Shown here: positions 42,001 through 48,000 of the stretch, in pieces
How the letters are laid out: each line of letters opens with the position of its first letter
How positions within the stretch are numbered: the stretch's first letter is position 1
Source of the DNA: Verrucomicrobiia bacterium
GTDB lineage: Bacteria; Verrucomicrobiota; Verrucomicrobiia; Limisphaerales; UBA1319
Direction of reading: 5' to 3'
NCBI GenBank assembly: GCA_963664225.1
Contig: OY760937.1
Coordinates: 1-64,000, forward strand
Length of the DNA: 64,000 nt
Program-made: the position numbers

Positions 42001-45000
42001 CGATGTATTTGTGCAGATGTTGGAGGATGGTTGGCTGTGTTATGTTCTAAAGGCAGACATCTGTATTGCCAAAATGAACGAGGCTAGCATTCCGCGCAAA
42101 AACATCCCGTCTTATAGCGAGAAGGCACGCACATTATGTATGCGTGCGTGGTTATCGTTGTATAATGATTCGGGTCAGGAAAGTGTGGATAAGTATCTTA
42201 GTAAAATAAAATCACAATTAAGAGACATCCTCAAAACGGAGCGCATTTGCTGCGCGCTTGGCGTGGAACGATTGAAAGAGGATGAAGTAATTCAAAAGTT
42301 TTATATAGATAGACCTGACATCCAGCGGTGTAGTCTAGGTGAGCAGTCGCTTAAAGCTCGCGATCGGCTTAAAGGTGGACTTTGGCCATTGCGGACAATT
42401 GATTCCAGTGAATATTTCCTCAAGTTTCTAAAAATATATTCATCCTATACTCCGCTAGTCTCAAGTGACAATGTGGCGCAGCATGGTGGAGGCTATTTTG
42501 CTTGCTTTGGAGGCTATGGCTGCGTTATTGACCCGGGACATCACTTCCTCGATAACTTCTTCCGCTACGGACATTCTATCCACGATATTGATTGCGTAGT
42601 AATTACTCACTTTCACGACGACCATTACGCGGATTTTCTCGCTTTACTGTCATTACTTCATCAGAGATCGAAGCTGGTAAAAACGAAAGACGGCAACAGA
42701 AAACAATCCTCCGATGAAGTTCACAAACCAGGAAGACGGCTTCGAAAGAAAGTTGATTTCTTTTTAGATGCAACGAGCTACGAAATGTTTGCATCATTGC
42801 TTTGTCCCAATAAAGGTGGAGTAAGAAAAGTTCGGTTTTGTCGACGCTTTGAAAAACTCAGTCCGGATGGTCCAATTATATCATTAGCTAAAGGGATAAC
42901 AATGAGACCAATATGTACTCAACATAATGTCTTAGGACGCAATTCTGGTGTGGGTCTTCTCTTTATGATACCGCGTCGTAAAACGAGTGTTCTGATCACC
43001 GGTGACACTGCATGGAAAGGTTGCATGCCTGAGGCTTATCGCGAATTGGCCTCTTCGATAGGCAATAAGAACTGTGTGGTAGTAGCTCATGTGAGCACTG
43101 CGTATGAGAAAGAGGTAATTGGCGGATTTTACAATAATCACTTGGCGATTCGGGGTCTTTGCCGGGTTATCGCGGCGATGAGACCAAAGCAGGTAATCCT
43201 GTCTGAAATTGGTGAGGAGTTGAGGGACAGCATCAGTGGCTTAAAAGACATTATTAAAACAGTTTATGGGTGCAAGTGTTATGTTGGATGGATTGAACAG
43301 GATTACAGTGAAACAAAGCGTGACAAACCGTTTACATACAATTTTTAATCGGGCCGCCTTTAATCTGGTTGATTCGGAGATAATTCTGGTTATTCGTAAC
43401 CACATAAAACCACTAGTGCTTTCCCAATGACAATGAAAAAAACCGCAGCCAGCACTTAGGAATTGACTGGCTATGAGTGCAAAATGACGTTTTCATTGGC
43501 ATTTGTTGTGTTCATGAAAAATCGTATTTGCCCATCGAATTGGTGGTGCGATTTTATTCGCAAAGGAAAGACTTGAAGGTGATAATCTGTGCCTTTCTGA
43601 CTCACATTTGCAATGGGAACATTTAAGCTGTAACAATTAGATCGGTGCTTTTGCTTCCAAACAGCTCCATAAGCATTTTGAGTTATTTCTCGTTCGGTTG
43701 GGCAGTGCCTTTAACCCGTGATTTGACCAAACGCGCTGGTATGCCGATTTCATTGGCCAAGAAACAGAGCTGAAGGTCTGTTCGTTGGATTTGGAATTGA
43801 ATTCATTTGCTGAGTGAGCTTCCTTGCCGACGTAAACGTTTAAACCATTGCTTCCTTGAGTTTCTGAAGTGTATTTTCTCGAAATCGTGCGGGTTGCAAT
43901 GCTCAACAGTGATACTCTCCCCGATTATGGAGTCTGTGGTCAACGACTCCTAGTCGCTTGAGTTTAGCCAGGGAATTAGCAGTTGGCACACGCCGATTTG
44001 TCTCCCAGTTTTTGATTGTCTTTGCGACCACCCCGAATTCTTTGGCAAATTCCTTGCGCGTTTTTCTCAATTCGAGTCGCCTTTTTAGTAATGATTCCCC
44101 GAAAGTTATGGGGTCTTTCTTTGTTAAAAAGGCAACATCGATGGTTTCGTTGCCTAAGGGCCTTCCGAGCGCTGGATTGGTGAAAGGATCATAACCCAGA
44201 TAGGCTGTAATCTTAGGCTGTTCTGACCAACATGGATAGACCCGGTCGCATTCCCAAAGGCTCAGCGTTCGTGAGCTAATCCCCAATTTGCGAGCAGCTT
44301 GCGCTTGGCGAATTCCCGTTTGAAAACGTTTCTTTTTGAGATGTTCGCCGAGAGTTGAAGGCTCCTTTGGAATTGGAAGACTATGCGTCCAGACTGGCGC
44401 AACATTTTTGCGAGCAACGTTTACAACGAGGTCACAAGATGGCAACGTCGCGCAGTCCGGATGGAAAAATGCCGTCCGAGTCGCGCAGCACGCCGCACGA
44501 AATCCAGCGTTACCTGGGACGCATTTCCGGGCCGCTGCTCGATCGCATTGACATTCATGTGGAAGTTCCCGCCGTGCCGTTTCGAGAGATGGCCAACGCG
44601 CGTCCGGGAGAAAGCTCGGCGCGCATCCGCGAGCGCGTGGTGGCGGCGCGGGAACGTCAGCAGAAACGTTTCGCCCACCGGAAGGGTGTGAGTTGCAATG
44701 CCCGCATGGGCACGCGCGATCTCAAGACGCATTGCGTTCTCGAGTCCCACACCCTCGAATTGCTCAAGTCGGCCATGACCGATCAGAACCTGAGCGCCCG
44801 CGCCTACGACCGTATTCTCAAAGTCTCGCGGACCATTGCCGATCTGGACGGGCGGGACGCCATTGGCGTGGAGCACGTCATGGAAGCGGTGCAGTTCCGT
44901 TCGCTGGACCGCCAGATTTGGACGTAAGGCGTCCTTAGGTTCCGGATTTATTTCCGCCTTTGCTCGGAATGTGCCGGTGGAAGTGTCTTAAACCCGAAAT

Positions 45001-48000
45001 CCGAAATAGGAACGGCCCATCTGACGCAATCATTTGGCCATCCATGGTTTGAAACCGGCTGTGGAGTATTGATTTAATACACCTTCGCCGATTGCAAATC
45101 ATGGCTGTCTCAAAGCATTGCATCGTCTTGACCATTCTTATTTCGGATTTCGGGTGTGCGCCAGTGAAATTGGTAGCCTCGTGGGTGAAAGTCCCGCCGG
45201 TCGAATTAGACGGTTCACGACCGAAATGCAGCGTCCGGGACGAGGCCGTGAGGCCGAACCACAAGCGGGACGCTGAAAGAACTGTCGGGTCGTAACGAAA
45301 GTAAACCTCATCAAATGAGCTCCGAAACCGAAATAACCGGTAAGCCGAGCCGCTACCCGAACGGCGAAGGCAGAAACGCGGCGTCATCAAATCGTCAAAT
45401 GGGCGCTGTTGATTCCGGCGGAGTCAGCGAGGGCGACACGACAGGAAGGGAAACCAAGGTAAGCTGGGAGATCTCTGGAGGCGGGGCGATAAAGCCTCAA
45501 CCGCCGGTGCAAGGAGGAACACCCTCCGAGGCCGCACGGGCAGCCAGAGAAGTCGGAGTCTTCCATAGTAGCGAAGAAGCTGGGGCGACCAAAACCCCGG
45601 CGGAGCCAAGGGAAGGCACTTGGATCGAAGCGAATCAAAACAGCGAGGGACAGGGAGATGGCCTTGAGGGAGTGGAAACACTTTTTCAACGGATAACAAC
45701 CCCGATAAAAGTTCAAAAGCTGCAGCGAGCGCTATATTGCAAAGCCAAGGCTGAGCCGAAGTATCGGTTTTACAGCCTCTACGGAGAACTGCTGCGGAAG
45801 GACGTGCTGGAAACGGCAATGGCCTCCGTGGCGCACAACAATGGCGCGGCTGGGATCGACGGGCAGACATGCGACGTCTATCTTGCCAGCGACGAAGCCT
45901 GGGACCAATGGCGGAACCAACTGCTGGAGGAGTTACGCACGAAGAAGTATCGGCCAAGCCCGGTGAAGCGTGTGTATATACCAAAAGGAGACGGGAAGCT
46001 GCGACCCCTGGGCATCCCGACAGTGAAAGACCGGGTGGTGCAGACAGCGGTGGTGATTGTATTGCTGCCGATTCTGGAAGCCGATAGTCATCCGAACAGT
46101 TACGCCTATCATCCCAAACGCAATGCCCACCAAGCAATGGAGGCGATCAAGAAGGCTACGCTGACAGGACGCGTCGAAGTTATAGACGCGGACTTAAGCG
46201 GGTATTTTGACAGCATTCCCCACAGGCGTTTGTTGCGCATAGTGGCCAAGCGGGTCAGCGATGGAACAATTCTCAAGCTGATCGCAGGATGGCTGCGCGC
46301 GCCCGTGAATGAACCGCAAAGCGACACAGGGAAAGGCGGGACAAAGGGGGGGCAAGGTCAGAATCGACGGGGGACTCCGCAAGGCGGGGTTGTATCGCCG
46401 ATTTTAGCCAATGCATACCTCAACCAGTTGGATTGGGAAGTCAACGAACGCTGCGAACTCAAACCCGTGATGGTGAGATACGCGGATGATTTCGTGATAC
46501 TCGGACAGCCGGGGCAGGGACGGGAACTGATGGAACGACTGGAACGATGGCTGAAGCAACGCGAGTTAGTGCTCAACGAGAAGAAGACCCGCTTGGTGGA
46601 CCTCCGCCAGGATGGCATCAAATTCTTGGGATTCGCGCTAACAATGCGACAGGGGAAGGGGAAATGGAAATATCCGCATGTGGAACCCCATCCCAAGAGC
46701 CAGAAGAAGTTTCGAGACGGGATTCGGGAGAAACTCAACCGAAGCACGCTATGGCGTGATATCGGAGAGGTGATTCCCGAGCTCAACAAGAAACTCAAAG
46801 GTTGGAAGGGTTACTTTCACTACGGGAACAGCACCAAGGTGATGGGCCAGATGAACGAATACGTCAGCAGCAAGTTACAACGATGGTTGTGGCGCAAACA
46901 CGGATGTAGTCGGGCGCAATGGTCCACATACCCCAAGGAGGATCTCTATGAGCGTTATGGTTTATACCAAATGCCGGAATATGCGGCATGGAAACGATGA
47001 CGTCGAAGCGATGCAACGTATGATCCCCGGAGAGCCGGATGCGGGAAAACCGCCTGTCCGGTTCGATGAGGGGCGAAATGCGACGGTCATTGGCCACGGC
47101 CATTCAATCCGTCCATTTCGCCTACTCTACTAAAAAAAAGAGTGGAAGTAACGGCTTCATAATACCTTCAGCACGACTCGTTCTGTCACCGCAAAGATCC
47201 GTGCATCTGTCATTTGACGAGTCGGCATGCGCCGCGTATATAATTAGAGAAAGGTAAAGTAGGTATAACCACAGCTAAACAAGGAAAACTATGAAGACGC
47301 AAGTTTTATTCACGGCGTTGATGGCCTGTGGCGTGGCCGCGCAGGCCATTCCCATCACATACAAGGCCGTTCTGAATGGCGCAACCGAATCCCCTCCAAC
47401 AGCCTCCCTGGGCACAGGTTTTGCAACGGTGATCTTCGATGACGTTGCCAATACCATGAGGGTGGAGGTCAGCTTTTCAGGGTTGACGGGAACCACCACT
47501 GCCTCGCACATCCACGCCGCGACTGCAATTCCGGGGACCGGTAACGCCGGGGTGGCCACAACGGTACCGACCTTCACCGGCTTTCCACTTGGGGTCACGA
47601 GCGGCACTTATGACAACACGTTCGATTTGACCCTGTCGTCCAGCTATAATCCGGCTTACGTCACGGCCAACGGGGGGACGATTGCGAGTGCGGAAGCGGC
47701 GCTTGGGGCGGCGCTTGCGGCAGGGAAATCGTATTTGAACATTCACACGACCACAAACCCATCGGGAGAAATCCGCGGATTCCTCGCGGTGCCAGAAACC
47801 GGATCGACGCTCGGGCTCCTCGCCTTGAGCTTCTCCGGGTTGTGTTTCTTATCACGGTCCCGGGTTGCACACACAACCTGAACACTCCAGGTGCGCGCGC
47901 GCCAGCGGAGACAGGCTCTAAGCCGCTGGCGTGTTTTTGGCCTCCAGTTCCTGGAGCCACTTTACAAACCGGGGAATGCCCGCTTCGATTTTCACCGAGG

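Follow-up and report, generated by a model that had tools for sequence, protein, structure and literature searches.

A nineteen-copy group II intron at the outer tips of a MITE and an IS1380-family transposon in a Verrucomicrobiia genome

A single group II intron occurs in 19 identical copies in the genome of a Verrucomicrobiia bacterium (assembly GCA_963664225.1, contig OY760937.1), nearly always one nucleotide outside the tip of a MITE or of an IS1380-family transposon. The copy described here lies in the window, the first 64,000 nucleotides of that contig. The intron anatomy, copy census, EBS1 covariation, target-duplication geometry and strand pattern observed in this genome make it probable that we are looking at an active, or very recently active, endonuclease-less intron that homes by base pairing onto transposon tips and is primed from the lagging strand.

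Results

An intron in nineteen identical copies

The intron spans 45156-47130 (forward strand; 1975 nt), from 5′ GTGCG to 3′ CTCTAC, and has the full set of ribozyme domains, I through VI (V being the catalytic one), that characterizes bacterial mobile group II introns. RF02005 (domains I-IV) matches 45188-45433 with 54.9 bits (cutoff 49) and RF00029 places domains V and VI at 47030-47130 (+) with 49.3 bits (cutoff 40), both over the full Rfam model. The longest ORF, 561 aa at 45315-47000 (+), encodes the reverse transcriptase and maturase (X) domains expected of such an intron, with RVT_1 at residues 222-441 (1.8e-34) and GIIM at 464-536 (1e-13) in Pfam, and scores 356 bits against TIGR04416 (cutoff 300). 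No Pfam family beyond these two, and no endonuclease domain (D/En, HNH), was found in the protein, which ends 25 residues past GIIM and so belongs with the endonuclease-less intron proteins. The first-pass annotation had given the intron 1975 nt and an RT/maturase of 561 aa. The length stands and the ORF is present, with a coding signature over only about 441 of the 561 codons, from ~45676: variable columns at codon positions 1, 2 and 3 number 126, 78 and 308 from intron position 521 onward and 33, 38 and 38 between positions 160 and 520. Upstream of the intron, a search for a sigma-70-like promoter gave none.

A blastn search with 45156-47130 against the genome, a single contig of 5,783,426 bases, returned 19 full-length matches, all at 100% identity; the number first annotated stands, and its identity range of 98-100% does not. 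Reading of the junctions agreed with the common 5′ exon word noted earlier, every copy sitting behind TCGGAKTTCGGGT and followed by T(W)AA. The 5′ side ends in one 13-base core, ...TCGGA[T/G]TTCGGGT, in 19/19, and the 3′ side is TAAA in ten copies and TTAA in nine. The division into 13 copies at MITE ends, four at IS ends and two at lone remnants was likewise recovered. MITE-end copies occupy one end type eight times and the other five times, with no MITE occupied at both ends, and the intron abuts four of the five IS copies at either end, as had been claimed (three at one end type, one at the other). Six MITEs are unoccupied, five of them full-length and one degenerate, and in three others an IS has inserted at an internal TTTAA and split the element. 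The sequence beyond the junctions, including that past the 3′ TWAA, is unique at each of the 19 sites. No ligated-exon or empty-site joint for the 45156-47130 locus was found in the contigs of other runs.

The MITE and its IS1380-family relative

The MITE next to the intron in the window (44993-45154; CCCGAAATCCGAAAT...ATTTCGGATTTCGGG) is 162 bp long, or 164 bp with one duplicated base on each side, rather than 156 bp as first annotated. It is nearly palindromic and free of ORFs. The genome holds 18 full-length unsplit copies (92.7-100% identity), the three split ones and fragments. Short length, lack of an ORF, terminal inverted repeats, target duplications, many copies and termini matching an autonomous element together identify it as a MITE.

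That autonomous element had been described as a 1.54-kb IS4-like element. It measures 1532 bp between its CCC and GGG tips, and its transposase places it in the IS1380 family (NF033539, 227 bits, cutoff 180; PF13701, 95.7 bits). IS1380-family elements in ISfinder have inverted repeats starting with CC and generate target duplications of 4-5 bp; the CCC...GGG ends and 5-bp duplication of this IS agree with that description. The MITE and the IS have 12 of 13 terminal bases in common and make the same 5-bp TTWAA target duplication, and by these features they are one transposon family. The common termini and the TTWAA target also suggest that the MITE may be mobilised in trans by the IS transposase. 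The 13-base core occurs at each end of either element, MITE or IS, one site per strand, and both end types are occupied by the intron.

Occupancy follows the inferred direction of replication

Replication direction was derived from data independent of the intron, namely the position of dnaA (2.990-2.991 Mb), GC skew, gene-strand bias and the polarity of GGGCAGGG. The terminus has an inferred rather than a mapped position and divides the genome into replichores of very different size (~1.5 and 4.3 Mb), and the stretch from 1.8 to 3.6 Mb is nearly free of strand skew. Among 51 intact target cores, 18 of the 26 on the inferred lagging-strand template are occupied, versus 1 of the 25 on the leading-strand template (p = 1.1e-6, Fisher). 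With an origin upstream of dnaA, the copy at 2,986,270, which lies 1.8 kb from the end of that gene, counts as leading-strand template. Eight cores on the lagging-strand template are empty, six of them seemingly perfect. The intron uses either type of MITE end, so its orientation is not dictated by that of the MITE.

The same pattern would arise if insertion were unbiased and orientation had been shaped later, by selection against head-on clashes between transcription and replication or by a need for read-through from neighbours. In 18 of 19 copies the intron sense strand points the way the inferred fork moves, the direction that selection for co-orientation would also yield. However, flanking ORFs are co-oriented with the intron, by crude ORF calls, at just 8/19 upstream and 9/19 downstream positions, the gene-strand bias of the genome is weak (~0.35-0.73 per 200 kb), and a second intron family in the genome, likewise endonuclease-less, follows no such rule (about 2/4). 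The identity of all copies further implies that purifying selection has had little time to remove roughly half of the insertions. Later selection is, in our judgement, unlikely, although it fares better than the alternatives discussed below.

Insertion within the target duplication

At the locus in the window, the left target duplication of the MITE is TTAAA (44988-44992, +). The first base of the right-hand duplication is the T at 45155, directly before the intron, and its other four bases form the start of the 3′ exon, TAAA (47131-47134, +). The intron thus lies between bases 1 and 2 of the duplication, 1 nt outside an intact transposon. When the intron was removed in silico, identical 5-mers surrounded CCC...GGG in 23 of 26 MITE/IS copies, including the informative TTTAT and TTGAG; a perfect 5-bp duplication is found in 5/5 IS copies and in 16/18 full-length unsplit MITEs. 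This arrangement indicates that the transposon inserted first and the intron second. As the insertion point lies inside the duplication, 1 nt past the tip, the homing site is the junction between transposon and flank. The 19 junctions, their unique flanks and the duplications that close upon intron removal support the earlier proposal: a single intron has spread by retrohoming into the ends of other mobile elements, and those ends may serve it as safe sites.

The copies could instead have been carried passively, without retrohoming, by transposition of the MITE or IS (for example one-ended), by segmental duplication or by recombination. The intron abuts a transposon end in 17 of 19 cases, IS1380-family elements are capable of one-ended transposition and of mobilising adjacent DNA, and recombination among 19 identical 2-kb repeats is plausible. 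Nevertheless, the duplication encloses the transposon alone and is itself split by the intron, and none of the 17 transposon-associated copies has a duplication outside the transposon-plus-intron unit. Both MITE end types, both IS ends and two transposon-free sites carry the intron, with unique sequence past the 3′ TWAA each time. Moreover, the MITEs diverge by up to 7% whereas the adjacent introns show no differences, a sign of a recent burst in which only the intron multiplied. We regard passive spread as highly unlikely.

Pairing between intron and exon

EBS1 (ACCCGAA, 45355-45361, +) lies at the tip of a domain I stem-loop, where the Rfam alignment has a loop of 9 nt, and pairs with IBS1 (TTCGGGT, 45149-45155, +), which is identical in 19/19 copies and takes its final T from base 1 of the right-hand target duplication. 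This assignment had been made before and is now confirmed by covariation: each of four related introns with a known exon forms 7-8 pairs, with changes on both sides (ACCTGAA/TTCAGGT in L007, TCCTGAA/TTCAGGA in L009, CCACGGAT/ATCCGTGG in L008). The positions first given for ACCCGAA and CTCCGA (198 and 163) were two bases off; they occupy intron positions 200-206 and 165-170.

CTCCGA, formerly proposed as EBS2, was rejected, being part of a helix maintained by compensatory change. The loop next to that helix, CCGAAAUAA (45328-45336, +), is complementary to TTATTTCGG (45138-45146, +; positions -18 to -10), and we propose the two as EBS2 (CCGAAATAA) and IBS2. The loop, in domain I, is unpaired in the Rfam consensus structure and hypervariable, being the most variable stretch among five introns otherwise 93% alike there, and forms 8-9 pairs with MITE ends. 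In one contig of another run (X9), T45334C is accompanied by G at exon position -16, a single compensatory change that keeps the pair. Positions -9 and -8 (45147-45148) form an unpaired linker, -8 being T in the MITE and G in the IS. Pairing is poor with the IS ends (7/8 and 6/8) and with one lone site (4 pairs), yet 4/5 IS copies are occupied. No convincing EBS2/exon pairing was found in the relatives L007, L009 and L008.

Group IIC introns have a short EBS1, lack EBS2 and insert at stem-loops such as terminators or attC. The MITE could be recognised in this way, as a DNA hairpin, rather than mainly through EBS/IBS pairing. It is 74% self-complementary and folds into a single long hairpin (-71.8 kcal/mol, z = -8.6) with the intron directly at its 3′ base, and the best solved-structure match of the intron protein is the RT of a IIC intron (7uim, 183 bits). 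However, at the four IS-end copies the partner repeat is 1.5 kb distant, the two lone sites are hairpin-free, and the intron has both a 7-nt EBS1 that covaries with the exon and an EBS2 loop. Hairpin recognition is therefore very improbable. Least credible of all is an assembly or polishing artefact behind the copy number or perfect identity: consensus polishing can homogenise 2-kb repeats and our analysis is based on contigs rather than raw reads, but the copies all lie in a single contig, every one between its own unique left and right flanks, neighbouring 162-bp MITEs retain their differences, and contigs of two other runs (X4, X5) contain intron pieces with 0 differences.

Discussion

Homing by base pairing onto transposon tips would proceed as follows, splicing, retrohoming and the priming mechanism being what we infer from the sequence. 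The intron RNA would recognise a DNA site of ~19 bases, with EBS1 pairing to TTCGGGT (-7 to -1), EBS2 most likely pairing to (T)TATTTCGG (-18/-17 to -10), and +1 always T. The site would consist of the outward-reading tip of the IS1380-family transposon, or of its 162-bp MITE derivative, and the start of the TTWAA duplication made by the transposase, so that each transposition would create two homing sites on opposite strands. By inserting 1 nt past the tip, the intron would leave the transposon intact and would not be carried along by it. Its protein should be unable to cut the second strand, so nascent lagging-strand DNA at the replication fork is the most likely primer for reverse transcription, which would explain why occupancy is confined to the end whose sense strand is the lagging-strand template.

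A more far-reaching reading, on which we are evenly divided, is that the homing site pre-exists neither in the transposon nor in the empty target and is assembled by each transposition: the tip would supply IBS2 and the first six of the seven IBS1 bases, and the TTWAA duplication would add the seventh together with the +1 T. The intron would then be a specialised, harmless follower of the MITE/IS1380 family, neither interrupting nor riding its host element, its spread coupled to transposon activity and gated by replication direction. The same evenly balanced reading holds that this outward-facing, junction-spanning arrangement is undescribed and that this would be the first group II intron with a MITE as its main home. 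In open-access papers and bioRxiv, the inward-facing RmInt2 was the sole comparable case found.

This genome offers a natural experiment on strand choice by endonuclease-less group II introns. Because each transposon presents the same target on both strands at one locus, the occupancy contrast carries the replication-fork priming model beyond rhizobial class D introns, into another intron lineage and another host. The genome also reveals a second geometry for life on a transposon, outside the tip of an undamaged element. There the intron relies on ongoing transposition for its sites, which couples three layers of mobile DNA, namely IS, MITE and intron. The 19 identical 2-kb repeats, co-oriented with replication in 18 of 19 cases, are likely substrates for genome rearrangement.

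Comparison with known systems

Homing onto transposon repeats is a strategy already in print (PMC4615759) for RmInt2 and ISRm17, in which the intron lies inside the element and belongs to another lineage. RmInt2 homes into both inverted repeats of ISRm17 in Sinorhizobium meliloti GR4 (Martinez-Rodriguez et al. 2014, PMC4615759; review PMC5894124), and this, the lagging-strand bias of the endonuclease-less intron and a two-base linker are experimentally demonstrated (PMC4615759). RmInt2 resembles the intron studied here in having a protein without an endonuclease domain, wholly identical genomic copies (7 there, 19 here), a target in both terminal inverted repeats with one site per strand per element, a lagging-strand-template bias (by assay there, inferred from the genome here), the -9/-8 linker between IBS2 and IBS1, and tolerance of IBS2 mismatches.

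The two differ in placement. In pRmeGR4c, RmInt2 sits inside the IS, 20 nt from the tip, reads inward and travels with it. Our intron also targets both repeats, but it lies in neither: it reads outward from the target duplication, 1 nt past the tip, and is no passenger of the intact transposon, and its main home is a MITE. RmInt2 in pRmeGR4c matches RF01999 (107 bits), whereas our intron and its relatives L008 and L009 match RF02005. This different domain I-IV RNA family, and the absence of the class D C-terminal motif LX3AX3PXLF[V/A]HW from the protein and 22 relatives in a regular-expression search, set it apart from class D (IIB3; RmInt1/RmInt2). The host here is non-rhizobial, judged by the labels of the nearest intron relatives. 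RmInt1 in ISRm2011-2 (IS630 family) of S. meliloti is likewise an endonuclease-less, multicopy, IS-homing IIB-type intron with a lagging-strand-template preference; each IS offers it one internal site, and by inserting there it reportedly blocks spread of the IS (PMC5894124), whereas here there are two sites per element, both outside.

Group IIC introns, the subject of PMC7923331, share with ours insertion just 3′ of a DNA stem-loop, a strand bias and the lack of an endonuclease domain. The 7-nt covarying EBS1, the presence of EBS2 and insertion at hairpin-free sites, six of the 19 lacking a local hairpin, separate our intron from that class. IStrons, in which a group I intron is fused to an IS (PMC4227781), also bring an intron and a DNA transposon into close physical association. 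An IStron is a single chimeric element moved by its transposase, whereas the intron and the transposon described here are two separate elements, each with a mobility of its own.

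Intron copies at transposon ends

A blastn search of the single 5,783,426-base contig returned 19 full-length copies of the group II intron, each 100% identical. The copy studied here (window 45156-47130, +) is a complete intron according to its Rfam matches, with domains I-IV at 45188-45433 (+; RF02005, 54.9 bits) and domains V/VI at 47030-47130 (+; RF00029, 49.3 bits), and it begins with GTGCG and ends with CTCTAC. All 19 copies follow the 5′ junction TCGGA[T/G]TTCGGGT, and their 3′ flank reads TAAA at 10 copies and TTAA at 9. Thirteen copies adjoin a MITE (8 use one of its end types, 5 the other, and no single MITE has an intron at both ends); 4 adjoin an insertion sequence, and the remaining 2 occupy lone sites that have 13 and 16 bases in common with the MITE end. 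The search and the junctions of every copy thus bear out the core of the first-pass annotation, a 19-copy intron with a common 5′ exon at transposon ends.

The lone sites had been listed as look-alikes. At one of them, 3,974,269, a different repeat family stops exactly at the start of its 16 MITE-end bases, so this site is a rearranged junction rather than a chance look-alike. The region 5′ of this intron (3,974,100-3,974,258) carries a repeat family of ~150 nt in at least 6 copies, found also at 5,343,422, 1,258,298, 4,905,264, 617,000 and 129,480. A 66-nt stretch ahead of this repeat occurs more than 10 times, twice in the window (16516-16581 and 19006-19072).

The transposon arrived before the intron

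The insertion sequence, present in 5 copies of 99.9-100% identity, encodes a transposase of 473 aa that matches PF13701 and, with 227 bits for NF033539 (cutoff 180), belongs to the IS1380 family; the initial annotation was IS4-like. The MITE is represented by 18 full-length copies of 92.7-100% identity, by fragments, and by 3 further copies that are interrupted at an internal TTTAA; it is 74% self-complementary, folds into one hairpin, and has 12 of 13 terminal bases in common with the IS. When the introns were removed in silico, identical 5-mers flanked CCC...GGG tips in 23 of 26 elements. These duplicated 5-mers are mostly TTAAA or TTTAA, and two non-palindromic cases, TTTAT and TTGAG, show that the target duplication is 5 bp rather than 3 bp long; the alternative of a 3-bp TWA duplication with ACCC...GGGT ends was rejected on the same two cases. 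The 5-bp duplication and the CCC...GGG tips also correct the element limits, previously set at a 156-bp MITE.

Since the duplications are perfect once the intron is taken out, the intron lies between bases 1 and 2 of the right-hand duplication, 1 nt beyond the tip of an intact transposon, and both the last IBS1 base and the +1 T are supplied by the target duplication. The transposon arrived first and the intron second, which is evidence against co-transposition of the two.

The internal TTTAA of the MITE is occupied by 2 of the 5 IS1380-family copies and by one unrelated IS1634-family element, which marks it as an insertion hot spot. The latter element, ~1.86 kb long, splits a MITE at 264,553-266,581 and encodes a 545-aa transposase (NF033559, 329 bits). 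Contigs of two coded sequencing runs, X4 and X5, contain a shorter MITE with 8 other letters in place of 101 internal bases (window 45033-45135).

Recognition of the target

The exon-binding sites had been assigned by complementarity as ACCCGAA (EBS1) and CTCCGA (EBS2). In the Rfam alignment, ACCCGAA (45355-45361) falls within a 9-nt hairpin loop. We compared this loop with that of four introns from other assemblies (L006-L009, 77-78% nucleotide identity), leaving L006 out of the EBS1 test as its contig lacks the exon. The exons of the relatives differ from that of the studied intron, and the loop varies along with them: ACCTGAA faces a 5′ exon ending in TTCAGGT in L007, TCCTGAA faces TTCAGGA in L009, and CCACGGAT faces ATCCGTGG in L008. 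Loop and exon change together in 4/4 testable introns, confirming EBS1 as first assigned.

The same comparison disfavours CTCCGA (45320-45325) as EBS2. This stretch lies within the helix GCUCCG/CGGAGU of the consensus structure, and a compensatory U-A to C-G change in the relatives favours the helix over an exon-binding role. Among the five introns, no stretch of domain I varies more than the adjacent loop (AAACCGAAAUAA). Within this loop, CCGAAAUAA (45328-45336) forms the complement of positions -18 to -10 of the MITE ends (TTATTTCGG). In such a pairing, -9 and -8 would serve as a linker; PMC4615759, in its account of RmInt2, describes a two-base linker as experimentally demonstrated. One contig of run X9 contains an intron that is ~95% alike and follows the same 15 exon bases; in it, T45334C is accompanied by a G at -16, so that the pair is preserved. 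The pairing is weaker at the IS ends (7/8 and 6/8 pairs) and comprises 4 pairs at one lone site, and no convincing complement was found in the exons of L007, L009 and L008. With moderate confidence, we propose loop 45328-45336 as the EBS2.

Strand choice and direction of replication

The main addition to the first-pass finding is a strand rule. Introns are oriented '+' in 5 copies at 0.05-0.95 Mb, '-' in 6 at 1.66-2.19 Mb and '+' in 8 at 2.99-5.61 Mb; the chance that 6 '-' copies among 19 lie contiguously on a circle, calculated by hand, is 19/27132 (~0.0007). Other, independent indicators of the direction of replication fit these orientations. The dnaA gene is located at 2,990,062-2,991,426, gene-strand bias switches near 1.2 and 3.0 Mb, and GC skew, positive over 0-1.3 Mb and over 3.6-5.78 Mb, is negative at 1.4-1.8 Mb. 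The +:- counts of the word GGGCAGGG, which emerged from a k-mer skew screen with 3.8-5.7 Mb as the training region, are 116:14 (0-1.4 Mb), 11:50 (1.6-2.2 Mb) and 160:23 (3.6-5.78 Mb). The word resembles GGGNAGGG, the polar motif of E. coli (KOPS), and is a candidate chromosome-orienting word.

With the origin set at dnaA, the 51 intact 13-base cores are occupied on the lagging-strand template in 18 of 26 cases and on the leading-strand template in 1 of 25 (Fisher p = 1.1e-6), a count that depends on a terminus inferred at 1.35 Mb, on very unequal replichores and on an almost skew-free region at 1.8-3.6 Mb. The single exception is the copy at 2,986,270; it is 1.8 kb away from the dnaA end, where the side of the origin is uncertain. 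The flanking ORFs (crude calls) are co-oriented with the intron at only 8/19 copies upstream and 9/19 downstream. The supply of targets cannot explain the bias, because each transposon offers both orientations at one locus and introns occur at either type of MITE end.

Cumulative GC skew rises over ~3.6 Mb, falls at 1.4-1.8 Mb only and is flat at 1.8-3.6 Mb, and the skew is never clearly negative over any whole replichore. A dnaA at 2.99 Mb and a polarity switch at ~1.5 Mb give replichores of ~1.5 and 4.3 Mb. A recent rearrangement could account for this odd skew and inequality, as could a misjoin or an unusual replication mode.

The encoded protein and other introns

The longest ORF of the intron (45315-47000, +; 561 aa) contains RVT_1 and the maturase domain GIIM (TIGR04416, 356 bits). 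A Pfam search found no family besides these two, and the protein ends 25 residues past GIIM; the endonuclease domain is therefore absent. In a frame comparison of five related introns, no stop interrupts the RT frame from domain I on. The stretch at 45251-45675 (domains I-III) is open over 139-155 codons 5′ of the RT domain in 5/5 introns, with 0 stops vs 4 and 5 in the remaining two frames, and domain I contains an in-frame ATG. Substitutions in 45251-45675 carry no coding signature: variable columns are even over codon positions 1, 2 and 3 at intron positions 160-520 (33, 38 and 38) and heaped at codon position 3 from position 521 onward (126, 78 and 308). As the codon-position signal appears only from there on, the functional protein is most likely ~441 aa long. 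The 561-aa RT/maturase first annotated would thus keep its RT and maturase domains but probably not its full length.

Against solved structures, which comprise IIC, IIB1 and IIA proteins only, the protein gave close scores (183, 166, 160 and 113 bits). A plasmid tblastn with it yielded generic names only among the matches. The class D C-terminal motif is missing from the protein and from 22 tested relatives, and the intron is not of class D. No sigma-70-like promoter emerged from a scan that covered the MITE and the region upstream of the studied intron.

The genome also holds a second group II intron family of ~1.97 kb in 4 copies of 99-100% identity, at about 1,676,500-1,678,500 (+), about 2,329,485-2,331,485 (-), 5,161,411-5,163,379 (+) and 5,604,127-5,606,107 (-). 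The RT of this family shares 41.7% identity with the studied RT and likewise lacks an endonuclease domain. The upstream exons are different, some of them inside other repeats. In its orientation the family does not obey the replication rule (about 2/4). A third, single RT/maturase gene is found at 2,134,896-2,135,957. The window further contains a tRNA gene at 51549-51623 (-; RF00005, 60.1 bits).

Relatives, metagenomes and sequencing runs

Related introns of 69-74% identity were identified in 3 of 60 relatives' genomes (G048, G034 and G005), all 60 searched as fragmented assemblies. The MITE was found in 0/60, including the sole same-genus genome (93% complete, 230 contigs), a result that in such fragmented assemblies does not imply absence. 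L008 has no inverted repeat of its exon and follows an ordinary 808-aa gene, and L009 has no inverted repeat within 486 nt upstream; we therefore claim no lineage-wide habit. A match to the nhaA-I riboswitch (RF03057, 46.4 bits; locus L012, 4382-4434) adjoins the locus of a relative intron from Bradyrhizobium.

A metagenome scan gave 0 matches to the exon-intron junction 20-mer vs 26 contig loci with an empty end plus duplication, indicating that the transposon-end family is wider than the intron. One of these loci is the same MITE (91% identity), 2 resemble the IS (76% over 255 nt; 84% over 44 nt), 16 have only the terminal 20-63 bases of the MITE, and 7 match none of the three queries. Contigs of several coded isolate runs contain the locus or the intron, with no joint across the intron at the studied locus among the sequencing-run contigs. 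In no RNA run did the share of the sampled words exceed 0.07.

Comparison with RmInt2

The closest published system is RmInt2. PMC4615759 reports that S. meliloti GR4 carries 7 identical copies, every one within the inverted repeats of ISRm17, which offer two sites on opposite replication strands and thus at least one on the lagging strand; RmInt2 prefers the lagging orientation for homing and accepts IBS2 mismatches. The account is repeated in PMC5894124, and the strategy has thus already been published. Among open-access papers and bioRxiv, we found no paper on an outward, outside-tip geometry or on a MITE as an intron home.

We compared one RmInt2 locus on NC_019848, with coordinates from the supplement of PMC4615759. 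RmInt2 begins within the IS, 20 nt from its tip, and its inward reading direction makes it a passenger of the IS, whereas the studied intron lies outside the element, reads outward and spans the junction of transposon and duplication. Domains I-IV of RmInt2 match RF01999, those of the studied intron RF02005. The analysis supports the interpretation that the intron multiplied via the termini of other mobile elements; what had to be corrected are the family of the IS, the limits of the elements, EBS2 and the functional ORF length. The present case therefore follows the logic of RmInt2 in another intron lineage, in mirror-image geometry and with a MITE as the element that it mostly occupies.
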